DNA of 64,000 nt from an uncultured virus (IMG/VR IMGVR_UViG_3300009104_000005) (taxonomy: Duplodnaviria; Heunggongvirae; Uroviricota; Caudoviricetes), in IMG/VR virus record IMGVR_UViG_3300009104_000005. One strand, given 5' to 3'. Below the pieces are notes generated by a model. It had not been told where the DNA came from and searched no databases. It was given only the letters and a program-made list of their open reading frames with translations. A program made the position numbers and the translations under genes. Shown here one piece after another: positions 35,101 to 64,000 of this stretch; within the stretch, counting starts at the first letter, position 1; every line of letters starts with the position of its first letter.

Positions 35101-38100
35101 CTGCTCCCCGAAAGTTGGGAATGCCTGACTAAGGTTCTTCACATAGACCTTGTCATTGTCTTTATCTATCTCTGTAATTATCACCGCACCTTTGGTAGTA
35201 TCTTCAACCCACCTCTTGTGATAAGGTCCTAACACATCTCGGTCTGCGGGGGCTCTAGCCTTCGACCTCCTCCCTACAGGGTTTGGTGCCCAAGAATGGG
35301 CTGTAAGAGTGGGGTCTAGATGTATCTTCATACTGTTATCAGGCCCAGGGAATATACCATTTCTTGGGTCATCAAAAAACTGGTTACTGAATACTGGTAT
35401 CTCTACTAGGGCTCGAGTACTAGCGTACTGAGTACCTAATTGGTAATCGTGTGCAACACTCCCTATACTCTGGAAGAGTCGGTCATTGATGGTGGTCCCA
35501 TCAGAAACGATACTAGCCTCATCAAACAGAGGGTCAAGAAGGACATTAGTCTGCCCTTTCACCACTGAATTAGTAGTAAGCCAGTTAGCGAAAGTATCCT
35601 GCTCAGACCCATCACTATTGATGAAGCGACCAGTACCAGATTGGTCTCCAGATTTGACTGTAAAGGCAGTAGCAGTGGTGTCATAGTATTCAGCACTAGC
35701 ACCATTCTCTAGATGTATTCTACCACGCACGGGGAACATGTAAGTGCCCCAACTAGCCAAAGCATCTGAGTTGTTATTCAATGGTGCTACAGTCAAAGAA
35801 GTACTAGTAGAAGCGGTCACCCTAGCCCCACCATCTCTCCTAGTATTCCACCCCAATCTAGTCAATGGACTCTTATCCCAAGTTGGAGTAGTCTCTACAG
35901 CACCTTGACCAGGACCACCTAGAGTAACAGTAACTACAGGGGCATCAGGTCTACTCTCTTTCACTATGATAGAATCTGGTGAACCTTCACCGATATACTC
36001 AGAAGCCATGGATGCTATATCATCCATCAATCCCCTACCTTGCATCGTTAGGATGAGTCCTCGCTCATTACGCTCACTACTAAAGGAACTAACCCTGCCC
36101 CTCGACATTAGGAACTCCAGAGTGAAAAGGGAAGGGTCGTCAGTATCATTCGTGAACTTACTGAGTTGCAGATTCCTGCTCCTGTCAGTAGGATGGGCAA
36201 TGATGTACACCCCCTTGTTGTCCGAATAGTTGTCTATCACATCGAACATCTCAAACGCATGAGTGGATTGGTTAGTAGGTCCTTTGTTACCTGTTTTCGC
36301 TGTCAACCTGAAATCATCAGCACCAACAGGGATACTCTTTGCTGCAGCCCCATTATCTCTCAAAATGAGATGGTGATACACAGAGGGATGTGACGCATCA
36401 TTGGAATGGGAAGAATTCACACCTATGGGTGGTGAATTCGGTGGGTCTGTGGCAACTTGTGGAGTGTAGTTGGGAGGTGTCATGCTCAGGTCCAACTCTA
36501 CCTCGTACTGTCTCCCTCCAGTATTGTCTCCCGATAGATTATGGTCCTTGAGCATATTACCCATTTCAGCCACACTAGATGCTTTGACATGGATAATACC
36601 CCCAGGAGCATGGAGTGTCATAGTACCACTACCTAGGAGGGTATTGATTCTATCAGCCACTCTCTTACTGTTGATAACAGAGCCGCCAGAAGGTACAGTC
36701 TTATTGACCAACAAGGCAGGACCATTGGCTCCAATTGTCCCTCCTGTGAGGTCTATTGCGTTGTAATGAATCTCCACATATGGGAAGTCATCATCTCCAG
36801 TCTGCAAGATAGCCACCCTAGACTCAGTCTCTGGTGCCAAATGTAGATTGTAGATATCATCAGTAGCCTCCACTCCACTAGTAGCATGGGACTTCAAAAG
36901 GAAGGGAGTGATATTGAATCCAGAACCACCTATAGAAATTATCTCATCTCTATCAGGGTCAAGAGTACCTAAACCGTTCCTCTTTATCTGAGCGACAGTA
37001 CCTGTAGTGATAACACGAACGCCATCTAAGAGAGTGTTGCTCTTGAGTAGGGATATCTGACTGTTTATTGGGATTTGCTCAGGAAGGTTGATGCTTTGTC
37101 CATCAAATACGGCGTAGATGCTATCAGCCAGACCATCCACAGTCTGGGTCACTCTTTCTTTCGATGCTCTCGGGAGTATTCTCAGATATGGGTGACCAGA
37201 ACAATGTGAAAATTTATGTCTACCAGAATGACCTGTTTGGAACTTGGAGTCTATTGCCCAATTAGCATTACTGATACTGTATGGGTTACCGGACTCGTTG
37301 ATACTCATATTACGACTATGTAGGAAACCATGGAACCCGTTTCCACTCTCATCTATGATTGTCATACCATTCCTATCTATCGCCTGGGAGCCAAGACCAG
37401 GTGGTTGTAAGGGACTTCCGCTACCAGGGTCTAACAACAAATCAGACCTGAGTATGACTATGAGACTATCATGTGCTAGGTTATTGGTAGCATCAAAAGC
37501 AGTTCTACCATGAAGTATACCTCTAGACCCTGTGTCAGTAGACATATCGAAATCCAAATGGATACTCTCTACTGTAATGGACCCAGTGGATGAGATGGAC
37601 TTGAGTCTCACTCGCTCCGGTGGTTTACTGTTAGGTTTACCAGTCTTGATATCAGTACCAGTAGGATTGATGAGTAGATTGACTGAGGTGTGGGCAATTT
37701 TCACTTTCTTGGCACCATCACTATGGGTAGTTACACCGACTTGATAGTCCCCTAGAGAAGGTACCGTGTAAGTCGAAGGCATGGGTGTAGATTTGCCGCT
37801 GATGATTTCGTATAGGCTTTGGACCTGTGTGGTATCTAAAGTGAGAGCAGTGTCCCCAGCATTTGCAGAACTTTTGATGTAGAACTCTGTATCGTCAACC
37901 TCTACAGGTTCCTCAAACCTCCACAACCCAACAGTACTACTCTGCCTGACCATAGGGGCTGGTATGACAGAATCCTCATCAACACCAAGACGGAAGTGAA
38001 CTCCCTCGATATAGCCTCTGAACTCACCACCCTTACCACCTAGGTATAGGTCTGAATTGGTTGGTGTGCACATAGAGCCGCTAGATATCTTGTTGCTAGC

Positions 38101-49936: not shown

Positions 49937-51085
49937 TCACTTAAGGTCACGGATAGAACCTCCTGCACCGAAGAAGGAATCCCAAACCTCACCCATGGTG
50001 CGGTAGAGCCCTTCCTGGCCTAGTCTGTTGATGGCGAACGGGTCGCCGGTTTCGATACCCGACTCGAAGTATTGGGTCGGTATAGCAGTCTGGAACCACA
50101 AGTAGTCCGTATCAAAGTAGTAAATCCTCGAAATACCATCAGTCACTACATCCTTGGATGGAATCAGTGGAACACCGTTGTAGGTAGCCACAATGAATCC
50201 GGCCTCGAGACCAGGCACACCCTTCACACCGTTGTAGGTGGGGGTGACCCTCTTCGATTCCATGAATCTCTGCTGGCTCTGTAGTAGTTGTTGCACACGC
50301 ATTAGGGTATCGTACCCAGTCAGCATGACCTTGGGGTTACCACCTCGAACCCAAATCTTCTGGAACAATCCGTCCAGTTGATTCAGGCTTAGGTTCCTGT
50401 TGGTCGCAGCAGTACTAGCATCACCACCCACATCTACCTCAGCGTTGTGGAACTCTGAATTCCCATCGCGTGTGATAGAGTATAGGTCGTGGTCTGTAGT
50501 AGCACTCACAGCAGTTTGGGTTGTCGTCATCACTGATGGGTCCGTAGTTATTCGGTCCAGTGACTCGAGGTCATTCCCTGCTGGAGTATCTACATCCTTT
50601 GTCAGCATTTGGTTGATATGGTCAGCGTGGTGCTTCCCCATCTCTTCCTTCAGTACTTGGCGTACATCTCCGAGACCATCGTCCTTATCAGAAAGGAACA
50701 TGGACACTTCGCTCAGGTCGAACGAGTGACCAATGGTCTTCGGCTTTGCGGCCACATGTAGGAAGTCAGGCTTCGTGGTTTCGGGCAGTGTGGCATTCTC
50801 AGCCAGACCTCCGCCAACATCAAACGAAGGCTTGGAGGTTATGATTCTCCACCCACTTCGCTCCCACGGCTTCTTCGGTAGAATGCTGAACGCGTTGAAC
50901 TCTTGGTTCAACTGCGACCAAACCTTCCTGCCGTAGATTGCCTGGTAGGTACCAGCCGTAGTGCTCAGAAGCGGTGCATCCGCCTTGAGTATGTCTCCAC
51001 TGCTGTATGTGTACCCAGTCAATGCGGTACCACCGTAGTAGTATCGCTCCATATCTTGTATTGTCCTTACATAATTACGCGCCAT
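49937..51085 (-). CDS. Major capsid protein (HK97 fold inferred)
   Basis: Follows the protease/scaffold gene. AIYGRKVWSQLNQE, LPKKPW..SGWR, KPKTI.H.F and YNGVPLI resemble halovirus/magrovirus-type MCPs. Confidence 0.9.
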   Translation of the reverse strand: MARNYVRTIQDMERYYYGGTALTGYTYSSGDILKADAPLLSTTAGTYQAIYGRKVWSQLNQEFNAFSILPKKPWERSGWRIITSKPSFDVGGGLAENATLPETTKPDFLHVAAKPKTIGHSFDLSEVSMFLSDKDDGLGDVRQVLKEEMGKHHADHINQMLTKDVDTPAGNDLESLDRITTDPSVMTTTQTAVSATTDHDLYSITRDGNSEFHNAEVDVGGDASTAATNRNLSLNQLDGLFQKIWVRGGNPKVMLTGYDTLMRVQQLLQSQQRFMESKRVTPTYNGVKGVPGLEAGFIVATYNGVPLIPSKDVVTDGISRIYYFDTDYLWFQTAIPTQYFESGIETGDPFAINRLGQEGLYRTMGEVWDSFFGAGGSIRDLK

Positions 51086-52488
51086 CAGTTATCACCCCTT
51101 AGAGCCGTATGTGCTAGTCGGTGGACATCGTCCCACGACAAGGCAGCCATCTCGGTTGTCTCAGGAATAGTTACTGTAGTCGTATCCTCTGACTTCTGGA
51201 AACTCTCTCCAGACTCAGTAGATATGTTCTCAATCCTGTCACTCAGGGCAAGAACTGCCTTCTGTAGGTCCTGAAGAGGACCACGGGCATCGAATGATGA
51301 CCTTTTGGTCTCATCCTGACTATCATTAATTTCTTTCTGCAATCTCAAGGAGAACTCATTACCAAGGTCTGTCTTGAACTGCTGCTCGAGAGCAGCGGCC
51401 TTGTAGACCTCATAAGCCTCCTCTATCTGGGATTGAGTAACCATCTCACGGTTGATGAATTCGTCGGTCTTGATAACCGTCTTATTACCACTTGGAGCGG
51501 AACCCATATTCATCTTGGGCCGCTTACTAGAGTCGTCCTCTCCAGCACCTTCAATACTACCTTGACCTCGGTGGTCGTAGCCATGGGCGCCTTCTTGGAG
51601 GTAAGCCTTCTCGACTCCCTCCTCTGTCTCAAAGTGACCGCGAGCAGCCGATGGGTCATACCCAGCGGACTTCACAGTCGACTCGAGCCACTGGAGGTAC
51701 TCTGTGGTAATCACATCGTCCATTTTCTCAGTTTTCTCAGAATCCTCAGACTTTTCGTCTTCGTTATCTTTCGCTACACTAGCCTTTTCTTTGTCTTCCT
51801 TGTCTGCATCTTCGTTAGCCTTCTCAGCCTTCTCATCTGCAGCCTTCAAGGCAGCCTCTGTCTCATCAACATCGTCTAGCCTCTTGGATAACCTCTCCAA
51901 GACATCTTGTAGTTCTGTCATCGCATCTGTCATTTTTTCACCTTTTTCTATATTTTCAGTTTTATCCTCTTTGAGGATTCGGAATTGGGCCTCCGGGTTG
52001 ATGCCCTTCTCGCAGATGGTAACTTCATGCAGTTCCATTCTGCGTATTTCTCGGTAATCTCCTCTCTCGGAGTTACTCTTGTTGACACGCTCAAAAGCCT
52101 GCCCACCTATTGAAAATGATTTGAGGTTACCCTTACGGATTTCTGCAGCCACCTCTCGGGCCTTCTCTATGTCATCACGGAGTTGAATAACTACAAACAT
52201 GCCAGTATCATCTACCTCTGACTTCCACACTCGACCACTACTGTCTGAATATTCAGGAATGACGCTCCCCACTTGGATGTTGGAATGTGCTAGTTGCACA
52301 TTCCTAAACCCTGGAGAACCCATGAATTTCTTGAATGCTTCTCGGAGTGCTTCCTTGGTTATCAGGTCACCTTGTTTGTCAACCATTTCAACCGAGGCAT
52401 AGCCAGCAACAACTAGGTCCCCAGTCCTACCTTTGATGAGGATAGGATTGTCTAGCGGTGCTTCCATCATGAGCATTATCCGAAGCAC
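51085..52488 (-). CDS. Prohead protease with C-terminal scaffold-like region
   Basis: VAGYASVEMVDKQGD, QLAHSNIQVG, KSFSIGG, EVTICEKGINPEA (HK97-type protease), then an acidic coiled-coil tail. Start probably about 52476. Confidence 0.9.
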   Translation of the reverse strand: MLRIMLMMEAPLDNPILIKGRTGDLVVAGYASVEMVDKQGDLITKEALREAFKKFMGSPGFRNVQLAHSNIQVGSVIPEYSDSSGRVWKSEVDDTGMFVVIQLRDDIEKAREVAAEIRKGNLKSFSIGGQAFERVNKSNSERGDYREIRRMELHEVTICEKGINPEAQFRILKEDKTENIEKGEKMTDAMTELQDVLERLSKRLDDVDETEAALKAADEKAEKANEDADKEDKEKASVAKDNEDEKSEDSEKTEKMDDVITTEYLQWLESTVKSAGYDPSAARGHFETEEGVEKAYLQEGAHGYDHRGQGSIEGAGEDDSSKRPKMNMGSAPSGNKTVIKTDEFINREMVTQSQIEEAYEVYKAAALEQQFKTDLGNEFSLRLQKEINDSQDETKRSSFDARGPLQDLQKAVLALSDRIENISTESGESFQKSEDTTTVTIPETTEMAALSWDDVHRLAHTALRGDN

Positions 52489-52508: not shown

Positions 52509-55500
52509 TCACACGGAAGAATTTGTATGATAATCTTGAGAAACAGTCAAATGGTCAGCCTTCTTCTTCTTCTTGGCTGGGTGTGCATCAGGGCAGTCCT
52601 CCATCTTGTGACCCATACCCTGTTTGCACTCGTCTCCTTTCTCAGCACCACACCAACACGCCTTAGGTTCAGACTGTCTAGCAGCAGGGTCATGGTCAGG
52701 TAAATCGTATGGTTCAGTTACCTTGGTAGGGCCACGAGGAGACTCAACTGGAGTTGCATAATCAATACCTAGAGCCTTGGGTCCAGTCATAGTGACCTTC
52801 TCTTTCAACATACCCTCAACTGCCTCAAGAGCCACTACCACAGTTTTCACAACTTCAGGGTCTTTCAACAACCTATCCTTCTTAGGGATGACCTTCTTTG
52901 GCTTCTTATCGTGGTTAGCAGGAGGTTCCGGCTCTATGTCTTCCTTCTCACTCTCTCTCTCTGAGCGCAACAACACAGCAGCCAATGGTGACCAATAATC
53001 CATCTGACTCTCAACTATTCTCAGTGTATAGTCATCAGGGGTGTCCACCGCTTTCAGGGCAAAAGCATTACCATAAGGTTCAGTATCATATACTACATGG
53101 CCACTAGGTACTTCGATATGTATGGACCCTTTCTTAATCCTGACTTTGTGAGGTATGTTCCCTTCTTGTCTGTTACGCAAGATGTCTAGAGTCTCTACAC
53201 TATCAGTAGCACCACCCTCACAGTCTTTCACATACCTAGGAGCGTTGAGACGATAGACAGAATATCCTCTGCGAACAGAATGAGAGATACCTGATGTTTT
53301 AACAGTGACATACATACCCTCCTCCAGCCCAGAACGGGATATAGTACCAACATCCATGTAGTAGTCACCATCATATTTGACCCCTCTATTACCAATAGCC
53401 TTGCCATCTTCATCATAAAGTGGACCTATACCCACTAGATGACTATCATCACTGGAGGAAGAAATTATCAACACATCAACATGCTGGTCGGGAGTAAGCA
53501 TCACCCACTTAGGATGTCTAGTCTCCCCTCTCATGTAGGTAGATTCAGCATCTCTGAGAAGAATCTGTTTCACCTTAGGCTCTTTGAGCAAGTCCTTAAC
53601 CGCTCTCTTCAGACCTTCTCCATCCACTCTCTTGGTATTCACAGGCGCAGGTGTAACAACTCTCTCAGTAGACTCGAAATGAGCACGAAGATGTCTAACC
53701 CTATCCTTAGTAGCACGATTGCATAAGTCATCATCTTCACACTCTAACAAGTCTACTATATGCAAACTATCTTCATCCCATATAGCGTCCACTAGGAAGT
53801 CCTTATCATGGGCCTCCACTACCCCCCTCTTGACTTCATTGGGTAGAGAAACAGCCTTACCCTCAGAATTCCTAGCCTTGACCTTCTTCCCCTTCTTCTC
53901 CACGATTACTCGAGTGCCGTCAGCCCAAGAAGTCACAACCCAATCATCAGAAAAGCCCCTCAGATACTCTAAATCATCCAGTTCAAAAATACGGTGCATG
54001 GCTTTAACTGGGACAGGCTTCCCTTTATCTCTGTCCTCCTCCTTCAGAAGAAGGTCCACATCAGTGAGAACATCTAGGGAGGTAAGCAATGGGTCACCTT
54101 CAGCGAGACGAGTATCGGCCTCCACTTGAGGATTTGGTTTGTTCATACATAAATCCTGCCCAAAGGCAGAATTGATTACCCCTACATCATAATTACGAAA
54201 GCGAGCATTGAACACCTCTCCAGTATTTGAGTAGGCATGGTCCTTCTCATACTGGGTAATTGTTGGTCTATCTCTAGAAGGGTCATCCCATGGGCCACTT
54301 ACACCAATATCGAAAGCGTTCTCTTCAGCACCCCTCATGGTACTAGGGGCTTTGGTAGACTCATTACGAGACCCTACATTCAACCTAAAGTGTATTGGTT
54401 TGGCATCACCATACAGATGCTGACCATGAACACCAGTCATATCCGGAAGCCACAGACCCCCATAATGCTCTTCATTGGGGCGAGTACCGTCTTTATTCAA
54501 CTCAACATCGTCCCCAATGATAGCCGGACGAGGTTTCCTAATGCTCCAAGGCTTTATTTCATAATCATCATTGACAGGGGCTTTTAGGAAAAGTAACCTG
54601 GTATACTCACGAGTCAAATCACCTCTATCATCTAAGTCCAGTTTATCATGAGGTCTGTGTTCAGGTAGTAAATCATCCTTCTTCAAATCCCGTATGATTA
54701 GTTTCATGACAGGCTGGAGGGCAGTCAATAGATTATTGAAATTGATGGCCTCCTCTGGTAATTTGGTAACCTCTGTAAGATGGTCACGCAAATCTAATGC
54801 CATTTTGGCCCTAAGTCCTCTCCTAGCCAACTCTATGTTCTTAGCCTTCTTACTAGGAGTAGCGAATTTATTGTCACCCTCTTTGATGTAATGGATGGGG
54901 TCCCAATCTGGGTCCTCAGAATCTTGAGTACCGAGATGGTGTTGTGCCACCCTGATGTTAGCCCTGTGCTCATTACCCTTACCAGTCTGAGTAAGTTCAG
55001 ATACTCGAGGCTCTACTGGTTGCTTTCTACCTGTATCATATAACTTCCCAAACAACGAAAAATGAGCATCAATAGCCTTTCTCAATGCATCTGCCATCTC
55101 TGGGTTGTCTCTCTCTTCAGCCCAATACTTATGAGTGTAGGAACGCAATAGATTCAAACCTTCAACATCTCTACCCTTACCTTCGTTGTAAGCATCATTG
55201 AAGGGGTGCTGGTTATCAATTTCTTCAGATAATCCCCAATGTCCGAAGTCGTATCGTGTATCACTATCTAGACCTGGGTGGAGAAAAGCCTCTCTTTCTT
55301 TATCAGTGAATTTGAACCCTTGTCTCTCAAGATGATGCAATAACTGGGGTCTACTCTCTATATGCGAGGAGTCTGCATACTTCGCGGCCTGGTCTATGAG
55401 ATAACAAAGGTGAGCATATTTTGTACTATCACTACCTATATCTGCTGGGTCCCCCGTCTGTTGAAGGTAGTTGTCTATGAAATGCTTCAACTTGTATTCA

Positions 55501-58500
55501 GCCCTATCCTCATCAGTGAAAGAGTCACCTAGATAGTGGTCAAAACCTTCAGGTTCATGCTCTGAAGCGACTCTGGCTATCAAGATTGGGAGCACTGCTT
55601 TGATTGCTTGCTGTCTATCACCAACAGCCCTAATCAATAACTCATGCCCCCTAGCAATATCGTCTGACTGCTCTACCTTCTCTTGAGGTACTGGCATCTT
55701 AGGTGCTATCTCACCAGCCTTACGACGCAATTCTAGTATTTCCCTAGGGTCATTATCAGGATTCCTCCCCAATAGCATTGCATAGTCATCTTTCATCTTA
55801 GCAGGGTGCTCTCCGATGAAATATGATTTTCCCCCATCCTCTATGACACAGTCAGGCTTCTCTTCCCCCTCTCTTATGGGTATAACCATCCAAGGACTAT
55901 CTTCTAGTTCTCTGTCCTCGTAAGTACCCCATATATTGAACGGTCTATTCCATTGGGGAGAACCTTTCAACTTCTTGGGGCAAGGGGTGGCTTTGTCAGG
56001 TATGTCAAGCATTCTGACATTGTACCCCTCATCCTTCTTCAGAGATATCCTATATTCCACCTCCCCTTCGTCATTGGTGGTCTTCTCGATAGGATAGAGG
56101 TACTTACCGTCAGTGACCTCACGGTGGTCTCTCCAATTAGTCTCATCAGTGAACAGACCCAAATGGCCAGCCAAACTACCTTCACTATGAGGATGTTTTT
56201 GGCTTTGTAACCATTCATCATATCTATGGAGCCATTTATCACCCCACTCCTGAGGCTTATCTACAACTAGGTGATTTTTCCCTTCATGCTCAAACTCCCA
56301 AGCAGGTGTGGAACCATGACCCAACAGAGCCGAGAGCAGTAAACCTGACTGACCCGCTTCGAGACCCTTGTTGGTATGAACCCCTGCACGATTAGCAACA
56401 GAGTGTGTTAGACCACCACCTCTATTACCATGAACAGGGTCTCTAGTTGAATCCCCAACACCAAGCCTAGCGTAGTCTTTACCGTGGGCCATATTCACCA
56501 ACATATGTCTGATAACCCTAATTGGGAGAGTAGCACCTCTTATGAGATGGGGTAAGATGGCCCCACTTTTCTTATTTGAGCCTCTCAAGATAGTAGCAAC
56601 TCCTCCCATCCTACGAATACCATCAAGCCTTCTATCTTCCATCTCTTTCAAGTCAAACAAAGCATCCTTAGTCTCGTCACTAATCTTCTTACCCTTGGAT
56701 TGTAAACTCGAGACCAATTTTTCATGGGGCGATAACACTCCTATCTCTGACGCGTTTCTGAGGAATACAGCGTCCCTCAGACCGAAAATGTGTGGGAGTA
56801 ACCTGAATATCCTTTCACTGCCGGCCCTTCTACCATGAGGATTAGTACTCTCATCGAACAGTCTAGCCTTGTATTGGGATGAGCGCTCATCGTTCGTAGA
56901 GATATTGAATGAATCAGCCCTCTCTGGTGAGTCCGGTTTTATACCCTCATCCTTCTCTTCTTGGAGTAACTCCCCCATCCGAAACTGCAGTACTCTACTA
57001 ATCAACTCCTCTTTGGATAAATCCAAATCCTCCAAATGACCATAAGATTTGTCAAAGACCGATTTCAGTGTATCACCCATGATATCCTTTCTCAGGTAAG
57101 CATCAATCTCATGGGCTAGTAGAGACATATTTTTGAGACCAAGGCCTTGCCAAGCCTTAGGAGTAGCACTATTACCAATCCCCCTGAGCCAATCTCTGTA
57201 TTCCGGACTATCTATTTCTGGAGGTTTAGTATTGTAAGTATCAAAAAGTATCAAATCTCTGTTTGAAATTGTCTCCCCCATCCAAGGTGCTAGACAAAAC
57301 ACTATTTCTCCTATATCAGGGCCTTCTAGATTGTAACCAGTATGACCTAGACTAGCATGCCAAAGCCAAGTAGGGCTTCTTTCTCGACTAGTAACTTCCT
57401 CATGAGGGGCAGGACCTTCCCCCTGTACTAAGGGTTCTACAGCGAAATACTCATGAGCAGCGTTTCTCAGGTAAGACAGAGCCATACCCCTAATGAAACC
57501 ATCAGGGTCTTCATGTAACCAGTGCCGAAATCTATGCACAGCACTTGCTTGGTATTTGGGAGGGATAAAAGGGACACATTTCTCCCTGAACTCGTCCATC
57601 GGTGGCTTGTCGAAATCCCAGTTAGCAGGGACTCCATTCCTATCATCCCACTCTAACCCCTCTGTTGATTTAACATGAGCCGCTATACTCTTGGCCTTAG
57701 CCCTAATATGCTGATATAGACTGTCATACCCTGTCAAATCCGTTTTCTTCTTCAACCACTCAGGGTCCATCTGTATGGCATGGGCTTTGGCAAGACCAGC
57801 AGAAATGATGCTTCTTCTCATATTAGCCCCTGTGTCAAACACAGGTGGTAAGAAGCCCCTGTTACTGGTAGTATGAGCCATAAGATTCTGAGCGATTGCC
57901 GACCAATTTCTACTAAAGGCAGTGTGCATATGGTCCAGCAACTCATCAATTCTCATTTTACCCATATGCTCGTCTCTGGAATCATGCCTCTCTTGGAAGT
58001 CCTTCTCTATGTCATGGTCAGGGTCGTTAACAGCATATCCTAGGAACTCTGCCATAGCATACTGTCTTGCTTCTGGGTCTCCAAATTGAAGGCCTAGAAG
58101 ATAAGGGAACAGGCCTACACGGTCATGTGCTTCGTCTCTCATTCTACGGAACTCTGTATCCATCAACAATTGCGACCTACTATATCTCTCATTGACAGTC
58201 CCATCTGGGTTGAGTAATTGTGTGGCTATGTAATCATCATGCTTTGACCCTATGTCAGACTCTAGAATAAACCAATCAGAGAAGAGTCTCCGTTTTGCTT
58301 TCTCACTCAATTCACTACTAATGTGGGGTTCAATTTTATTTGACCATCTTTCATAAGATTCTTCCACCACTCTACTCCAGGTGTCAGAAGAAGGTAATTC
58401 ATCCCCAACCACATTTCCCTTCCTATCTATGGCCCTGTGGTAATCTAAATGAGTATCTGTCCTTTTACCGGTTGCATATTTCAGACTCCTGCCTTTACTC

Positions 58501-59348
58501 TCCAGATTCTTCTGGGTAACTTTCTTATCTACCTTTTTCACAAAATGGTGAGAATCAGGGTCGAGGAACTCAGAGTGGAAATTGAAAAATGAATCTGAAT
58601 CTTCTGAAGTAGGCCTGAAATCACTGAATATCCCTAAAGCCTGTATTGGGTCAGCCATCTTATCATCCTCAGGGGGATGAGGTCTTCCTGTCATAATCCT
58701 GACATAGTCACCATAAGTTATCCCATTACCATTGGGAATCAACTCATCACCCTTCTCCTTCAACTCATCAGGGGTATACTCATGAAGCACTCGGTAGGTA
58801 TTTCTGATATCCTGCGCTGTCATGTTCTGAACTTTACCATCAGCATCAGTGTATCGGAACAACGATTGAATATCGAAATGCCTACTGGGGATTATTGGGG
58901 AATTGCTTTGCCCAGCCTCTCTAGTGCCCGGCATCCTCTTAGCACTGTAAAATTCCTGAGTCTCATTTGGTAAGGGCCTCCCCTCGGAATCGTATCCTGC
59001 TTGCTTAGGGGGAGCCGTCTTCTGTTCAACCAACATTGGTGTAACCCCGACTCTGGAACCCTTAGGCCCCTCACCCTCATCAAACCTGCTATGGGCCTGT
59101 CTGAGCCTCTGGAGTCTCTTCTCCCTAGCAGTCAATCCTCTGATTTCTTCAGGTGAGATTTCCGGTTTTTCAGTTTCTGGCCCTACCCGTTCTAGGGCTT
59201 TCTCAAGAATATCATCCCATTCAACATCTAGGCCATGGTTGGCCATATTTCTGATAGCGAAGAAAAGGTCAGCAGCGGCTTCATCATCTAGAGTCTGTTG
59301 ATAGCGTGCCTTGCTGCTTAGGAAATATTCCTTGGGGCCTTCACGCAC
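52509..59348 (-). CDS. 2279-aa head-module protein with C-terminal degenerate ATP-dependent DNA ligase-like domain
   Basis: Ligase-like motifs in order (WVVTSWADGTR, LVDAI, HIVDLL, QILLRD, Y.RG....KWV) followed by an OB-like region. The N-terminal ~1750 aa are unrecognised. Confidence 0.75.
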   Translation of the reverse strand: MREGPKEYFLSSKARYQQTLDDEAAADLFFAIRNMANHGLDVEWDDILEKALERVGPETEKPEISPEEIRGLTAREKRLQRLRQAHSRFDEGEGPKGSRVGVTPMLVEQKTAPPKQAGYDSEGRPLPNETQEFYSAKRMPGTREAGQSNSPIIPSRHFDIQSLFRYTDADGKVQNMTAQDIRNTYRVLHEYTPDELKEKGDELIPNGNGITYGDYVRIMTGRPHPPEDDKMADPIQALGIFSDFRPTSEDSDSFFNFHSEFLDPDSHHFVKKVDKKVTQKNLESKGRSLKYATGKRTDTHLDYHRAIDRKGNVVGDELPSSDTWSRVVEESYERWSNKIEPHISSELSEKAKRRLFSDWFILESDIGSKHDDYIATQLLNPDGTVNERYSRSQLLMDTEFRRMRDEAHDRVGLFPYLLGLQFGDPEARQYAMAEFLGYAVNDPDHDIEKDFQERHDSRDEHMGKMRIDELLDHMHTAFSRNWSAIAQNLMAHTTSNRGFLPPVFDTGANMRRSIISAGLAKAHAIQMDPEWLKKKTDLTGYDSLYQHIRAKAKSIAAHVKSTEGLEWDDRNGVPANWDFDKPPMDEFREKCVPFIPPKYQASAVHRFRHWLHEDPDGFIRGMALSYLRNAAHEYFAVEPLVQGEGPAPHEEVTSRERSPTWLWHASLGHTGYNLEGPDIGEIVFCLAPWMGETISNRDLILFDTYNTKPPEIDSPEYRDWLRGIGNSATPKAWQGLGLKNMSLLAHEIDAYLRKDIMGDTLKSVFDKSYGHLEDLDLSKEELISRVLQFRMGELLQEEKDEGIKPDSPERADSFNISTNDERSSQYKARLFDESTNPHGRRAGSERIFRLLPHIFGLRDAVFLRNASEIGVLSPHEKLVSSLQSKGKKISDETKDALFDLKEMEDRRLDGIRRMGGVATILRGSNKKSGAILPHLIRGATLPIRVIRHMLVNMAHGKDYARLGVGDSTRDPVHGNRGGGLTHSVANRAGVHTNKGLEAGQSGLLLSALLGHGSTPAWEFEHEGKNHLVVDKPQEWGDKWLHRYDEWLQSQKHPHSEGSLAGHLGLFTDETNWRDHREVTDGKYLYPIEKTTNDEGEVEYRISLKKDEGYNVRMLDIPDKATPCPKKLKGSPQWNRPFNIWGTYEDRELEDSPWMVIPIREGEEKPDCVIEDGGKSYFIGEHPAKMKDDYAMLLGRNPDNDPREILELRRKAGEIAPKMPVPQEKVEQSDDIARGHELLIRAVGDRQQAIKAVLPILIARVASEHEPEGFDHYLGDSFTDEDRAEYKLKHFIDNYLQQTGDPADIGSDSTKYAHLCYLIDQAAKYADSSHIESRPQLLHHLERQGFKFTDKEREAFLHPGLDSDTRYDFGHWGLSEEIDNQHPFNDAYNEGKGRDVEGLNLLRSYTHKYWAEERDNPEMADALRKAIDAHFSLFGKLYDTGRKQPVEPRVSELTQTGKGNEHRANIRVAQHHLGTQDSEDPDWDPIHYIKEGDNKFATPSKKAKNIELARRGLRAKMALDLRDHLTEVTKLPEEAINFNNLLTALQPVMKLIIRDLKKDDLLPEHRPHDKLDLDDRGDLTREYTRLLFLKAPVNDDYEIKPWSIRKPRPAIIGDDVELNKDGTRPNEEHYGGLWLPDMTGVHGQHLYGDAKPIHFRLNVGSRNESTKAPSTMRGAEENAFDIGVSGPWDDPSRDRPTITQYEKDHAYSNTGEVFNARFRNYDVGVINSAFGQDLCMNKPNPQVEADTRLAEGDPLLTSLDVLTDVDLLLKEEDRDKGKPVPVKAMHRIFELDDLEYLRGFSDDWVVTSWADGTRVIVEKKGKKVKARNSEGKAVSLPNEVKRGVVEAHDKDFLVDAIWDEDSLHIVDLLECEDDDLCNRATKDRVRHLRAHFESTERVVTPAPVNTKRVDGEGLKRAVKDLLKEPKVKQILLRDAESTYMRGETRHPKWVMLTPDQHVDVLIISSSSDDSHLVGIGPLYDEDGKAIGNRGVKYDGDYYMDVGTISRSGLEEGMYVTVKTSGISHSVRRGYSVYRLNAPRYVKDCEGGATDSVETLDILRNRQEGNIPHKVRIKKGSIHIEVPSGHVVYDTEPYGNAFALKAVDTPDDYTLRIVESQMDYWSPLAAVLLRSERESEKEDIEPEPPANHDKKPKKVIPKKDRLLKDPEVVKTVVVALEAVEGMLKEKVTMTGPKALGIDYATPVESPRGPTKVTEPYDLPDHDPAARQSEPKACWCGAEKGDECKQGMGHKMEDCPDAHPAKKKKKADHLTVSQDYHTNSSV

Positions 59349-59366: not shown

Positions 59367-60098
59367 TCACATGCCTTGTTGTAGACCTGCTGGAGGGGCA
59401 GGGGTACCACCATTCATACCATCACCTAATTGGGGTCCATCTCCACCACCAGTAACCAACTCCTTGAGTTTGTCCACTAAGTCAGTTATCTTGGCAGCAA
59501 GACCTTCAGGGTCAGAAGGTTCATCATCTCCTGGAGGCATATCATCAGGGAGTCCACCAGCACCCTCGTCTCCCGGTGGGGGCATGTCAGGAGAGGGGAC
59601 TTCGTTTGGTGGACCACCTTTAGCCCCACCAAGTATCGCATCTAGAGGCGATGCTTTCTCGATACATGAGACATTTTTGCATATACCACCACTACAAGAC
59701 ACACCACAACTAGGGCAAGCCTTCTTGAGTATAATTTCAATCTCCTTCCTAAGGTCAGAAGGAGGCTTACCTACACTAGAATGAGTGTAGGAAGAAGGGG
59801 GGTGTGGGTCTCCACCGGAAGGGTTCTCGTGAGCATCTAGAGTAGAACCTGTCTGATGGGGGTTAGCATTGATGAATTTCACATTCTCACTGGTAGCACC
59901 CTTATTGGTAACATCCTCTGAATCACCAGGCAACTCTTGATTAGTATAGTAGTGATTCATAGGGGCTTCCTCTACCCCTGTGATATTACGAATCTGAGAA
60001 TTATCCATCTCTAACTTCTCAATCATACTGCCTGCTTTCTCTACTAGTTCATCCACATCTGGGGCATGCTGCCCTGCTTCTACTTGCATTGGTTTCAT
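59367..60098 (-). CDS. Hypothetical head-module protein, Pro/Gly-rich, Cys cluster
   Basis: CPSCGVSCSGGICKNVSC; ATGA coupling. Confidence 0.7.
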   Translation of the reverse strand: MKPMQVEAGQHAPDVDELVEKAGSMIEKLEMDNSQIRNITGVEEAPMNHYYTNQELPGDSEDVTNKGATSENVKFINANPHQTGSTLDAHENPSGGDPHPPSSYTHSSVGKPPSDLRKEIEIILKKACPSCGVSCSGGICKNVSCIEKASPLDAILGGAKGGPPNEVPSPDMPPPGDEGAGGLPDDMPPGDDEPSDPEGLAAKITDLVDKLKELVTGGGDGPQLGDGMNGGTPAPPAGLQQGM

Positions 60099-60454
60099 TG
60101 GTCCACCGACCTTCCTTCTGCTACTGCGGCTTGGTCTGCCATAGCGTGAATCTCATCCCAACCCATATCGTGCCAATCTGCGTTATCAACAGGGGGTTCT
60201 ACCATAATCCCATCTACCATAATGGCAGCCTTCTCAATGACCTCATTTCTTTCGCCCCTGAGAGGGTCACCCCATACATCCTCAGTTTCGGGAGTTGAGG
60301 CCCTAACATAGCCAGCCTTTTGTAAGAGCATTGATGGGTCATTCAGCATTTTTCTAAGTTGCAGGTTCTGCTCTTGTAGATTACCAATGTCACCATCCAT
60401 ACGCTCCATCTTAGTGATGAGAGCATCGACTAGATTAGTGACCTCATTACTCAT
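60095..60454 (-). CDS. Hypothetical head-module protein (coiled-coil)
   Basis: ATGA-coupled. C-terminal MGWDEIHAMA resembles the protease/scaffold C-terminus LSWDDVHRLA. Confidence 0.72.
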   Translation of the reverse strand: MSNEVTNLVDALITKMERMDGDIGNLQEQNLQLRKMLNDPSMLLQKAGYVRASTPETEDVWGDPLRGERNEVIEKAAIMVDGIMVEPPVDNADWHDMGWDEIHAMADQAAVAEGRSVDQ

Positions 60455-60810
60455 TGCCCATCAACCCTCTGGCCGAACCCATGTTGGGGTCTCCAATCAC
60501 TCTGGATTCCATCAGGGCCGATATATCCCATAGGGCGGTCACCCTTGATTAGAGCACCTTGGTCCTTGAACTCCATTACAGGGGTACCACCAGCATAGAT
60601 ATCATTTACACCAGTTGTAGATTCACTCTCGGTTTGTGACTTGTAAATTGATGTCACATCTTCTGCTAGGAAATCACTAGTTTGGCTAAGTGCTCTGAGT
60701 AGTTGCTGTGCTGACACAAGGTCATCATTTTTCAGAGCCATTTTGAACTCTGCCATTGTTGTTTCCAGTTTTCTGACCATAGGGTCCAACTTGATAATCG
60801 GCTCAGTCAT
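60451..60810 (-). CDS. Hypothetical head-module protein
   Basis: 119-aa ORF directly downstream of portal. Confidence 0.7.
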   Translation of the reverse strand: MTEPIIKLDPMVRKLETTMAEFKMALKNDDLVSAQQLLRALSQTSDFLAEDVTSIYKSQTESESTTGVNDIYAGGTPVMEFKDQGALIKGDRPMGYIGPDGIQSDWRPQHGFGQRVDGQ

Positions 60811-60840: not shown

Positions 60841-62808
60841 CTATCGTGGCAAGCCACCTTTCTTCTTGCCCCCCAAAGCGTTGGCTCCGGCTTGTTTGGC
60901 ATCTTCTATAGCATCCAAAGCCTGTTCTATAGGAGTTTTCTTACTACCCCTCTGTTGTGTCTTAGTTGCCCCAGTAGTTGTACCTGATTTCGCATCCACT
61001 CGCTTGACAGGGGCTATCCGACCATGTCTCAAGCCTTGGCTCTCAGAATCTGAACCTGCCCCTACACTCTTTCGAGTCACCATAGGCATCCTACGAGCAT
61101 CACCTGGATGGAACATATGCTGACTAGGTGGTCTAGCAGCAGGCCCTTGACCTCCCCCTCCCGGTGGAGGCGCTACTGGGGCGGCACCACCACCTGGTGG
61201 CATGACCATTGGGCCTCCTCCCATCGGTGGCATTCCTCCCGGTGGGGGCATAACACCACCACCTGGAGGTGGTGGCATCATACCAGGTGGTGCACCCCCT
61301 GCCTCAGGAGGAGGAGGCATAGCCCCACCTCCACCACCTTGTTGCATCGCTGCTTGTTGCTGGGCGGCCAGTTCTTGTGGGTCAGGCTTCTTGTAAACGA
61401 ATCTAATATCTCTACCTGCGTCTTCAGTGAGTTCAGGCTGGAACCCTAATTGGGCCATTCGCTGAGCGATATTGACCTCTTGCTCATCTCTTCTCAGACG
61501 AGTGACTTCATCTTCTTCCTCATTCGGATAGAGCGTCATCTCCCAATCTGTTACTCCCATTTCTGAGAAAAGTCTAGGGAAGATATCACGAGAGTATAAT
61601 TTCTGGCCAAACTCCACAGCACGATTAGTAACTAGTATCTGAAGTCCCTCGTTGTTGAGACCACCACCCTTACCAGAATCCATCATGAAGATGTTTGAAA
61701 CCCCATAGAATGCTGCTATACGCATGCGTAGTTCATCACGGACTGCACCATACTGCATCTCGTCTAGAGTATCCATAAATCTGACGAACTCTACACGACC
61801 TCTCCCTGTAGCAGACTCCACACCTACCTTAGGGATGTAGTTCGGGTCACGCTCCATCTTCTCCTCAGCACCTTTCCAGAACGCTGCAGTAGATTGGATG
61901 TTATCGGTGGTGATGGACAATACACCTCTCGGAATCCTACGCTTCTGATAAGCCAGATACATGTAATTGTCCATGGCTGTCAATGTCATAGCCTGTCTCC
62001 ACATAGTGGCTACTGGACTACGACCGTATAATTTGGAAGGACTGAACTTGGAAACATGAACAATTTCACCCTCGATATAGTATTGGGTCTTACCAGAACC
62101 AGCAGTATTGATAAAATGCACATCCTGTAAATCAAGTTTGCAAACCTCACACTCCTTATCCTCTTCTGAGTACGGGTAGGTCTTATCCCTATGAACTGGA
62201 CAAACCAGATACCTACCACCTCTAGTCCCTCTCTTGTCTGCTACAATCCTCATGAAAGTAGGGTCACCTCTCATTATTTCCTTGACCCTGAAAAAGTCAA
62301 TCTTACCATTGTCAGGGTTGAGGAAGTATTCCTTGATGAGAACTATGAAACCATCATCTACGATATCCATGTCCCATTCGACCTCTCTCAAGACATCAGT
62401 AAAGGACTGGTCCATCCCATTCCTTTGCTTGACGAACCATCGAGGGTACAATATCTGGTCTGCCTCTGGGGACTGGAAATCAGTACCACCGCATATCCTG
62501 CATTCAGATATAGTATCATGCTGGTACTCCTCCTCACATTGTCCACACTTCTTGTGGAACTTTTTCTTCCAGTAATGACCCCTCCTGAATATCTCCTGAC
62601 AGAGGGTGTTGATTGTGGTTCTGAGAATGATACTCTCTTGCACTGTGGCATAGAGGGCTGGTATGCTCACACCCTGAACTAGGACAGGCTCCTGTATGCC
62701 AGCCTTCCAAAGAGGCATTATCGGCTCAGGAGTAGTTTTCTTTCTACGGCTACCAGTTATTCTGTCAATAAACCTAGCAACCATACCCTTGTCATCTTCA
62801 CCAGCCAT
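60841..62808 (-). CDS. Portal protein with zinc-ribbon insertions and Pro/Gly-rich tail
   Basis: IVHVSKFSPSKLYGRSP, RIPRGVL and RIAAFYGVS portal motifs; CGQC/CRIC and CPVH/CEVC inserts. Confidence 0.88.
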   Translation of the reverse strand: MAGEDDKGMVARFIDRITGSRRKKTTPEPIMPLWKAGIQEPVLVQGVSIPALYATVQESIILRTTINTLCQEIFRRGHYWKKKFHKKCGQCEEEYQHDTISECRICGGTDFQSPEADQILYPRWFVKQRNGMDQSFTDVLREVEWDMDIVDDGFIVLIKEYFLNPDNGKIDFFRVKEIMRGDPTFMRIVADKRGTRGGRYLVCPVHRDKTYPYSEEDKECEVCKLDLQDVHFINTAGSGKTQYYIEGEIVHVSKFSPSKLYGRSPVATMWRQAMTLTAMDNYMYLAYQKRRIPRGVLSITTDNIQSTAAFWKGAEEKMERDPNYIPKVGVESATGRGRVEFVRFMDTLDEMQYGAVRDELRMRIAAFYGVSNIFMMDSGKGGGLNNEGLQILVTNRAVEFGQKLYSRDIFPRLFSEMGVTDWEMTLYPNEEEDEVTRLRRDEQEVNIAQRMAQLGFQPELTEDAGRDIRFVYKKPDPQELAAQQQAAMQQGGGGGAMPPPPEAGGAPPGMMPPPPGGGVMPPPGGMPPMGGGPMVMPPGGGAAPVAPPPGGGGQGPAARPPSQHMFHPGDARRMPMVTRKSVGAGSDSESQGLRHGRIAPVKRVDAKSGTTTGATKTQQRGSKKTPIEQALDAIEDAKQAGANALGGKKKGGLPR

Positions 62809-64000
62809 CAGATATCACCTACCAACCTACTCATATCGTCAACAAGCCTGATGACCTCGGGGTCACTCCTACCCCACGAGAGGACCTCTTGTTCATCAAC
62901 ATTCCACTCGTCAAGCATTTCATCAGACTTGACATCTTTCCAATTCTCCCACTTGACTACCTTGTAGAGTTCATCCCTACGCTTTGTAATCATATCACCA
63001 TTACGGCCTCTCAAATCAAGAAGTTGCAAAACACATTCAGCCTGCTTCTTCTTCAATCTGAGATGGGGTTTGATGCCTACCAATAATTTTCTTAAATCAT
63101 CACCACTATAGAATTGCAATCTGTGCTGGCTTCTCTTACTGTTTTCATGCACCTTCAAGTCTAACTGTAGAATACCACAATTCAGTAAATCATGTATCTG
63201 CTCACAATGAGCACGACCCCTCACCCCAGTGGCTATAATCCCTGCGCGAGGCTCACCCCGCTTCGATATAGTGATATAACCATCAGCATCCAAGAAACCT
63301 GCTGTGTATGCCCAAGGGTCCTTGATGACACTAGAAGAGTCTGTAGGTAACAATTCCCATTTATCTTGGTGCTTGGTGATATTGTACTCAAGCCCATAGG
63401 TCTTGAGTAGAGCACTCAATTTCTGAACTGAGAATGACTTATTCCTACCATCTAAATGAGACATGTTTTCCATAAGGGTTCTAGAATCCATAGCACCATT
63501 GTGAGACAACATATCTGCAGCAGTGTTCAGATAAACAGCCTCAGATTTGCTAAGACTATCTGCCTGATGTAATGTACCCCTCCACATACCCTTGGATTCC
63601 TTCCTCTTACTCATAGACTCCACCCACAAATCTCTTTGCTCATTGTCCCACTCTCCTTCCACTTGAGCAAGCCTCTTGATGACATCATTAGCATTATCCC
63701 ATTGAATACAAGCCTGTTTGAGTGACACTTCTCTATTATTGCCGAACTTTCTCAGTGCCTTCAGGTCTCGGTCACTTATACCTAGCCCTTTGATAGCATC
63801 TAAGTGCCCCGAAGTCCATGGTAAACTATCCAAAACAGAGTCAATCTCTGCCTCCTTAGCCTTTCTCACAGCACCTATTAATTGGTCGATATCCCCAGCA
63901 AACTGTTTATGCACTCGTCTTTTCATGCGTAGGTTTTTGATAAGTTCAGAGGCAGACTTTCCGAATTGGTCCTCGAACCAACCATTCACCACTTCATCTT
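62808..64000 (-). CDS. LAGLIDADG-domain protein with long N-terminal helical region (possibly 5' truncated)
   Basis: WAYTAGFLDADGYI...IKPHLRLKKKQA. The frame stays open to the window edge; TGATG coupling to portal. Confidence 0.8.
   Translation of the reverse strand, partial: DEVVNGWFEDQFGKSASELIKNLRMKRRVHKQFAGDIDQLIGAVRKAKEAEIDSVLDSLPWTSGHLDAIKGLGISDRDLKALRKFGNNREVSLKQACIQWDNANDVIKRLAQVEGEWDNEQRDLWVESMSKRKESKGMWRGTLHQADSLSKSEAVYLNTAADMLSHNGAMDSRTLMENMSHLDGRNKSFSVQKLSALLKTYGLEYNITKHQDKWELLPTDSSSVIKDPWAYTAGFLDADGYITISKRGEPRAGIIATGVRGRAHCEQIHDLLNCGILQLDLKVHENSKRSQHRLQFYSGDDLRKLLVGIKPHLRLKKKQAECVLQLLDLRGRNGDMITKRRDELYKVVKWENWKDVKSDEMLDEWNVDEQEVLSWGRSDPEVIRLVDDMSRLVGDI

Follow-up and report, generated by a model that had tools for sequence, protein, structure and literature searches.

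Two ATP-dependent DNA ligases have been reported for magrovirus groups A and B, among them a distinct ligase family "embedded in the structural module", and the relevant portions of that work treat the structural-module protein as a ligase in both groups, the string "inactiv" having 0 occurrences in the supplements (Philosof et al. 2017, PMC5434244). The gene described here belongs to the same family and occupies the same position; however, in its group A-like form it is predicted to be inactive and carries a fused putative cargo of 1,720 amino acids, the group B-like form alone being intact. As with the archaeal ATP-dependent DNA ligases (PDB 2cfm, 4eq5, and 3rr5), the giant protein it encodes contains a nucleotidyltransferase (NTase) domain and an OB fold, but its catalytic motifs (I, III, IV, and V) have given way to other residues, the N-terminal DNA-binding domain of ligases was not detected in profile searches including Pfam, and an extra C-terminal domain is present. 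A related family member, the ligase AJP62006.1 of the ANMV-1 virus (KP703175.1), is encoded directly after the portal gene, but it has intact catalytic motifs, a length of 866 aa, and other accessory domains.

In poxvirus A20/A22, the inactive catalytic and OB domains of a ligase are reused as a non-enzymatic bridge between the polymerase and uracil-DNA glycosylase (bioRxiv 10.1101/2023.09.03.556150 and 10.1101/2022.11.22.517515). The likeness is an analogy only; unlike the giant protein, A20/A22 belongs to a eukaryotic virus, has a replisome role, and is traced to NAD-dependent ligases, an intact ortholog at the same locus is not mentioned in the available portions of these preprints, and A20/A22 is absent among the top structural matches listed for the C-terminal model of the giant protein. 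Moreover, MuF-fused and polyvalent head-packaged effectors are enzymes whose genes lie among those of the head and which are inferred to enter the capsid and be injected, with an inactive variant described (PMC5512222 and PMC9503650). However, a ligase is not among the fusions described in the relevant portions of these sources, and sequence searches of the giant protein for a MuF domain gave zero Pfam or PHROGs matches.

A giant gene in the head module

The window is a stretch of 64,000 nucleotides from an uncultured virus (IMG/VR IMGVR_UViG_3300009104_000005), and all coordinates given here refer to its minus strand. The giant ORF (52509..59348) has a GTG start and zero internal stops, being intact as first described, and encodes a head-module polyprotein of 2279 aa whose C-terminal end is a pseudo-ligase module, a region with 219 homologs. 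It lies downstream of the portal gene (60841..62808; phrog_18178) and before the gene for the prohead protease (51085..52488; PF04586), the proposed processing enzyme, with the major capsid protein gene at 49937..51085 (phrog_24667), and this is the position of the magrovirus structural-module ligase. The initial annotation, which set the gene between portal and protease, was right about the head module, but three small head-module ORFs (59367..60810) separate the portal gene from the giant gene. The prohead protease gene is the next gene in every locus holding it in four locus sets (78/78, 79/79, 39/39, and 8/8).

The window also carries a thermosome-type chaperonin, a PolB replication block, and a LAGLIDADG gene in the head block, as in the description of magrovirus group A, and against that description the virus, a marine virus of archaea, would be assigned to group A, presumably as an Apasviridae-like member. 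The ORF is the "structural-module ligase" of Philosof et al. (2017). A scan for promoters and terminators gave nothing useful.

The ligase fold and its catalytic motifs

The ligase fold was revealed by profiles and structure alone: as a single sequence, the full-length protein gave zero matches in Pfam and PHROGs, phmmer against PDB sequences missed the fold, and an annotated phage collection gave zero matches. A profile built from 22 relatives, by contrast, found 21 PDB sequences at E<=10, every one a DNA ligase, and another from 48 relatives reached E 2e-4. The AlphaFold model of the C-terminal part (mean pLDDT 80.4) matches the archaeal ligase 2cfm in Foldseek (E 6.4e-14) and an archaeal ligase in VIA-align (Z 22.7, rmsd 3.3, 264 residues), in agreement with the fold initially proposed, and the predicted model shows the NTase domain (53484..54026; aa 1775-1955), predicted to be catalytically dead, and the OB-fold domain (53178..53483; aa 1956-2057) of an ATP-dependent DNA ligase. 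The magrovirus ligase-family motifs P-M-x-R-I-F, GF-S/T-G-x-W, and P-K-W are common to the giant protein and the intact members, and in BFVD an unnamed protein of 827 aa scores best (E 6.5e-26). Automated pipelines had been expected to call an active ligase; the window's copy is instead missed, because the full-length protein has no Pfam match and the NTase domain by itself (E 0.008) falls under the cut-off, but the expectation holds for some relatives, which pass the PF01068 cut-off.

Motif positions were mapped by alignment to intact orthologs, which bore out the motif I reading made initially from the sequence: motif I (53910..53927) reads WADGTR, with W1808 (TGG at 53925-53927) in place of the adenylated Lys. 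The readings DAI (53781-53789), KQILLR (53553-53570), and WVMLT (53493-53507) for the regions of motifs III, IV, and V were likewise located. The alignment places I1856 at the motif III Glu, V1865 at the motif IIIa Phe, K1927 at the motif IV Glu, and M1950 and T1952 at the two motif V Lys positions; R1813, R1944, and K1947 are kept. Loss of the Lys extends to the homologs, since long-form relatives retain the motif I Lys in 0/198 rows, the motif III Glu and the first motif V Lys in 0/199 rows each, and the second motif V Lys in 8/199, and the motif I Lys position is variable among them (W, Y, M, I, L, F, and H). W1808 is not a sequencing error, because its codon is unchanged in the contigs of all three DNA runs covering it (3/3), one of which belongs to the study that may be the source; the single RNA run gave no contig over the domain and is evidence neither for nor against. 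The C-terminal fold, as read from its sequence, is without the residues for ligation, and circularisation of the genome ends, which had been suggested as a role, cannot be catalytic, because the adenylated Lys is missing.

Most degenerate members retain the NTase + OB architecture, but the OB domain is absent from two dead-clade subgroups, an absence compatible with a single loss (p-AU 0.167). It is followed by a domain of four strands and helices (52935..53153; model pLDDT 90.5) present in all degenerate subgroups, whose profile matches 78 OB-bearing, 39 short-clade, and 8 OB-less loci and 0 intact loci. This domain has no clear fold match (best Foldseek E 0.3, best Z 5.0 among 48,161 chains), which does not amount to a demonstration of a new fold. 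In the model and alignment, the remainder is a low-confidence tail (52512..52934) with short conserved motifs, and the C-terminal 142 aa gave zero usable matches in the ESM Atlas. The Cys/His cluster that had been noted at the end of the window's protein (52581-52658) is indeed there but occurs in just 16/167 long relatives and is lineage-specific, not a family feature.

Selection and intact sister forms

Purifying selection acts on the pseudo-ligase domain. Among 14 close pairs, with some redundancy, dN/dS is 0.025-0.077 for the NTase domain, compared with 0.13-0.24 for the cargo and 0.045-0.080 for the portal; the OB domain (0.03-0.2), where present, is as constrained as the NTase domain. 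Variants over the NTase, OB, and next domains comprise 17 synonymous and 2 non-synonymous changes. Moreover, nine positions (H1785, R1888, P1902, G1912, L1913, R1932, M1939, E1942, and H1945) are 88-100% fixed in 64 degenerate rows at residues differing from those of 30 intact rows. The initial view of an exapted pseudo-ligase kept by selection is, thus, upheld by the motif loss in relatives, the dN/dS values, the new invariant residues, and the 17:2 ratio of variants.

At the same gene position, sister-clade loci keep motifs I, IV, and V in 80/80 and motif III in 75/80 cases, and this intact clade is likely group B. The degenerate forms constitute a single clade in two trees (support 100/100 and 99), and the pseudo-ligase derives from a ligase of intact appearance whose gene occupied that head-module position. 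Five matches to "bacterial" genomes are magrovirus head-module contigs within bacterial bins. In three near-complete relatives, no intact ligase was found, the replication-block ligase being degenerate too, and in group A-like genomes the catalytic Lys is missing from both ligase copies, which corrects the standing annotation. Because dead and intact orthologs share one locus, the transition from enzyme to pseudoenzyme is open to side-by-side assays that require no culture of host or virus.

Putative cargo, candidate cleavage sites, and a possible role of the dead fold

The giant protein begins with a conserved leader of ~50 aa (59199..59348), a candidate prohead-targeting propeptide; an iterated profile of aa 1-250 reaches 188/341 N-terminal regions, the first 50 aa being the conserved part. 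The hypervariable segment of ~1,720 aa that would be the cargo (54042..59198) belongs to no known family, with zero matches in Pfam and PHROGs and zero usable ESM Atlas matches for aa 300-620. It is alignable over most of its length in only 7-13/187 relatives, shows 30-53% identity where the NTase identity is 81-88%, and evolves far more rapidly than the capsid, portal, and protease. A weakly conserved subdomain with an LG..Y..GLE motif (57669..58361) is common to the degenerate clades, with 250 matched stretches among the 341 N-terminal regions and zero matches in PDB sequences. Neither cargo nor leader shows homology to the N-terminus of intact orthologs in hhalign (probability 0.3% and 2.6%).

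Two candidate prohead-protease sites are predicted by motif search, ILEK|A (59196..59216) and, in the linker preceding the ligase fold, DLLLK|EE (54036..54059). Prohead proteases cleave after Lys in HK97 and T5; a literature search found no paper supporting Lys cleavage by this prohead protease. The hydrophobic-Lys pattern, picked after inspecting the window's head proteins and counted with overlapping matches, precedes the ligase domain in 163/182 linkers, compared with ~30 in shuffled sequences and 112/2730 control windows. Across three clades, it is enriched 2.2-5.6 fold in the protease and 1.4-2.1 fold in the giant protein and depleted in terminase (5, 0, and 2 matches versus 33, 37, and 9 expected), and its enrichment extends to unclassified dead-clade ORFs (1.6 fold). 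This enrichment in head proteins and depletion in terminase suggests that the giant protein may be cleaved by the prohead protease and packaged in the capsid, and the motif could provide a way to predict capsid-entering magrovirus proteins. The C-terminal W-x-x-I/V-H motif common to the protease and one small ORF was found in 0/178 giant proteins. Precedents exist for packaged and processed head proteins (PMC5512222 and PMC10052503), and the gene position and the candidate protease motif make the virion protein initially proposed a probable one.

A dead, strongly conserved fold at a position where sister viruses encode an intact-looking ligase points to a former enzyme that is likely a non-enzymatic anchor. 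The preferred reading, with a probability of about 0.45, is that this anchor serves the large, fast-evolving cargo, which would be packed into the prohead and cut by the neighbouring protease. An ancestral ligase gene stood directly before the prohead protease gene, and along the stem leading to the group A-like clade that carries the thermosome, its catalytic positions were replaced, mostly by hydrophobic residues, and new residues became invariant. Judging from the alignment, the AMP pocket would then have been filled and the domain turned into a folded interaction module, the leader and the C-terminal module could carry the polyprotein into the prohead, and the protease may cut after the hydrophobic-Lys sites at aa 50 and aa 1769, yielding a 1,720-aa cargo and a 510-aa pseudo-ligase module. 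The cargo could be the part that acts while DNA is ejected or early in infection, and this would account for its fast evolution. A broader version, in which both ATP-dependent ligases of group A-like magroviruses became pseudoenzymes and the head copy is a protease-released, virion-borne module whose new conserved surface docks or delivers a hypervariable host-interaction protein of 1,700 aa, with the intact ancestor at the same locus in sisters, is tentative and perhaps doubtful.

The strongest alternative, although somewhat unlikely, is a non-catalytic binder of DNA nicks or ends, packaged and ejected with the genome, which would cap the ends or pass them on to the ligase of the host. Ligases require the OB domain for nick binding, and the retention of the NTase + OB architecture in most members, of R1813, R1944, and K1947, and of a constraint on the OB domain equal to that on the NTase domain, which fits DNA binding equally well, is consistent with this role, as are the intact ligase ancestor at the locus and the lack of an intact ligase in relatives whose full gene content was examined. 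Nevertheless, the end- or nick-binding idea, also raised initially, is weakened by the loss of OB in two subgroups and by a net acidic domain (mean charge -4.3 in 64 dead domains versus +1.5 in 11 intact domains, the two sets overlapping widely), and the ligase N-terminal DNA-binding domain was not detected.

Repurposing of the pocket for a small ligand, a metal, or new chemistry, e.g., as a sensor or sponge for nucleotides that enters along with the genome, is unlikely. Snurportin-1, in which a dead nucleotidyltransferase fold binds a cap, offers a parallel. In favour of such a role, Pfam SPN1_m3Gcap_bd matches 21/48 members at E<=0.05 (best 6.4e-6), and the newly invariant residues include two His, Glu, and Arg; however, the snurportin match may reflect a common fold and nothing more, and the Lys and other pocket positions vary freely, unlike what a specific site would show. 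It is quite improbable that the protein is a late non-virion factor, e.g., an assembly chaperone or a scaffold removed at maturation, whose dead fold would serve for docking and never enter the next host. Its co-transcribed position adjoining the protease would suit such a factor, and propeptides leaving the head also bear protease-type motifs (PMC10052503), but the cargo evolves much faster than the capsid, protease, and portal, and an intact ligase at the sister locus would make most sense if delivered with the DNA.

An active ligase using another Lys is highly improbable. K1927 occupies the motif IV Glu position in the window's subclade and K1947 is nearly invariant, but the former is not conserved and the latter also occurs in intact orthologs, beside the true motif V lysines. 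Similarly, a 1,100-aa subclade keeps the motif I Lys in 7/10 alignment rows, but in only 2/36 loci, and the motif III Glu and first motif V Lys are gone in every degenerate row, including those bearing the motif I Lys. The two trees disagree on where this subclade belongs, one nesting it and the other setting it at the base, and Lys-to-Trp replacement as the first step was not retained. Finally, a decaying relic or assembly artefact, for which nothing was found in favour, is refuted by dN/dS <0.1 and hundreds of intact reading frames, besides the 219 homologs, the stable W1808 codon, and the predominance of synonymous variants.

Conservation of the degenerate ligase fold

The giant protein (2279 aa; 52509-59348, minus strand) was described in the initial annotation as a dead ligase with WADGTR at motif I; its motif readings and coordinates were all borne out on re-reading the sequence, and the motif I Trp codon is identical in all three DNA runs covering that position. 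The predicted model of residues 1770-2200 has a pLDDT of 80.4 and matched the P. furiosus ligase (Foldseek E 6.4e-14; VIA-align Z 22.7), and profile searches with pseudo-ligase relatives returned solely DNA ligases (21/21 and 5/5). The degeneration is real and conserved.

Loss of catalytic residues extends across the long-form family. In an alignment of 242 proteins, pooled from 120 listed of 219 homologs and 150 listed of 199 cluster representatives, the motif I Lys is found, among the matches listed, in none of the 198 long-form rows that cover the position; the motif III Glu is seen in 0/199, and the first and second motif V lysines in 0/199 and 8/199, respectively. Counted by locus, the motif I Lys is missing from every one of the 84 long forms that were parsed, out of 87. 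Because many loci are nearly the same, such tallies do not represent separate events. A subclade of 1,100-aa proteins retains this Lys in 7/10 protein rows, yet just 2/36 parsed loci have it, and the subclade has neither the motif III Glu nor either lysine of motif V. Five genomes of this subclade (67-91% complete) gave zero PF01068 matches.

Philosof et al. (2017) took the head-module gene for an ATP-dependent ligase in magrovirus groups A and B. Two ICTV profiles name a ligase and add no comment, as does PMC10160649 in its accessible parts, and the word "ligase" is absent from the main text of PMC11706807 and PMC5332604. No statement of inactivation was found in the accessible literature, while subscription papers and supplements could hold one; as far as seen, the head-module ligase is misannotated in print.

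Genomic setting and related ligases

The window comes from a magrovirus-type tailed virus of archaea. Its replication block (PolB, primase, ERCC4 nuclease, and chaperonin) faces a morphogenesis block that runs from the LAGLIDADG gene through the portal gene, three small ORFs, and the 2279-aa ORF to the genes for the prohead protease and the capsid protein. The tail block holds a 5146-aa ORF (23188-38628, minus strand). The chaperonin is 43-97% identical over its entire length to those of dead-clade genomes, whereas matches to the sister clade, which encodes an intact ligase, are weak (E 1e-5 to 3e-7); from these matches and the description of Philosof et al., we infer that the window belongs to magrovirus group A and the sister clade to group B.

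An intact ortholog occupies the same gene position in the sister clade. Among the best 80 of 502 matches, these proteins of 830-1,000 aa have motifs I, IV, and V in 80/80 loci and motif III in 75/80. The portal lies upstream in 43/43 sister and 41/41 dead loci, and the protease gene is directly next in all sister (79/79) and dead (78/78) loci holding one, as well as in the two OB-less subgroups (39/39 and 8/8). In the ANMV-1 virus the portal is followed by an intact relative. The degenerate forms are a single clade in two trees (64/75 rows, 100/100; 23/30 rows, 99), within which a single OB loss is not rejected against two (p-AU 0.167).

Intact members P0233 and P0229 carry an additional metallo-beta-lactamase fold, and P0241 a methyltransferase domain. 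Among the intact members, which also comprise those at L092:10001-12499 and L184:3200-5800, there is an additional C-terminal domain common to group B-like proteins (hhalign 96%), which may resemble LigD phosphoesterase, a likeness that further comparisons did not confirm. All five matches in the set of bacterial and archaeal genomes (L260-L264) are magrovirus head-module contigs in Maricaulis and Altibacter bins; they are likely misbinned, which may be why Philosof et al. (2017) mention "uncharacterized bacteria".

Genome G001, with a chaperonin 97% identical to that of the window, was used in place of the window's complete genome and scanned whole together with G002 and G003 (181, 184, and 225 frames of at least 100 aa in G001, G003, and G002). 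A profile of intact ATP-dependent ligase domains matched the head gene solely, and sister genomes have two strong ligase matches each (4/4). Beside the clamp loader, group A-like genomes have a ligase-like replication-block gene, which by sequence comparison lacks the motif I Lys in 6/6 sequences (L164:997-2376, L175:1471-2859, and L180:14014-15303 on the minus strand; L178:3001-4392, L179:4710-5969, and L181:4262-5548); the window virus's own copy falls outside the window. A 412-aa frame of G002 upstream of the head genes (L249:7425-8660, plus strand) contains KYDGTR and matches neither the intact-ligase profile nor Pfam.

Selection and architecture

The pseudo-ligase domain is maintained, with no decay. 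Across 14 close pairs, some redundant and with synonymous sites near saturation in window comparisons, dN/dS was 0.025-0.077 for the NTase, 0.026-0.196 for the OB domain, and 0.13-0.24 for the N-terminal segment, compared with 0.045-0.080 for the portal. Population variants were 17 synonymous versus 2 non-synonymous in the NTase, OB, and next domain, and 2 versus 5 in the end of the N-terminal segment adjoining the NTase. At nine alignment positions the degenerate forms have become fixed for a different residue from that of intact members, which points to new constraint.

The giant protein comprises a conserved leader of ~50 aa, a segment of ~1,720 aa aligning over most of its length with just 7-13 of 187 relatives, the NTase, the OB domain, an 80-aa four-strand domain present in every degenerate subgroup, and a low-confidence tail; a Cys/His cluster occurs in 16 of 167 long forms. 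A hydrophobic-Lys motif lies in the pre-NTase linker of 163/182 proteins, versus ~30 after shuffling and 112/2730 control windows. Matches to a looser pattern number 42 in window head proteins versus 18 expected, 14 versus 12 in replication proteins, and 25 versus 23 in tail proteins; across three clades the protease, LAGLIDADG protein, giant protein, portal, and capsid show an excess of it, and the terminase a deficit. Prohead proteases of this class cleave after Lys. Since the pattern was picked after inspection of the window, and literature searches found no paper on such cleavage, we infer only that the giant protein would be processed by the prohead protease and packaged in the capsid.

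Possible role and motifs of other head proteins

The pseudo-ligase could act, without catalysis, to anchor an internal head protein that undergoes processing, a reading given a probability of about 0.45 and favoured over all rivals because the OB domain is dispensable, charge shifts acidic in dead domains (with wide overlap with intact ones), pocket positions vary freely, and conserved candidate cut sites flank the fast-evolving segment on both sides. For a dead ligase fold serving as a bridge, poxvirus A20 offers a published precedent. Binding of DNA nicks or ends, a role in keeping with a maintained ligase fold, is a weaker candidate given the acidic shift and the dispensable OB domain. Ligand binding or new chemistry, which the newly fixed positions might accommodate, seems rather unlikely with so variable a pocket. 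A non-virion role in assembly would suit the gene's place beside the protease and is improbable, and residual ligase activity, despite the scattered lysines, is hardly credible. The head-module pseudo-ligase represents a case of viral enzyme exaptation for which the intact ortholog, encoded at the same locus, provides a control.

In the LAGLIDADG protein (62808-63992, minus strand), the candidate protease motif is enriched 3.5-3.7 fold in two clades and 1.25 in a third, and this protein may be packaged in the head rather than be a mobile endonuclease. In addition, a C-terminal W-D/S-D/E-I/V-H motif, a candidate capsid-binding scaffold motif, is common to the small ORF at 60095-60454 (minus strand; 39/51) and the prohead protease at 51085-52488 (minus strand; 106/164 ORFs), with 0 occurrences in capsid, portal, and LAGLIDADG proteins.
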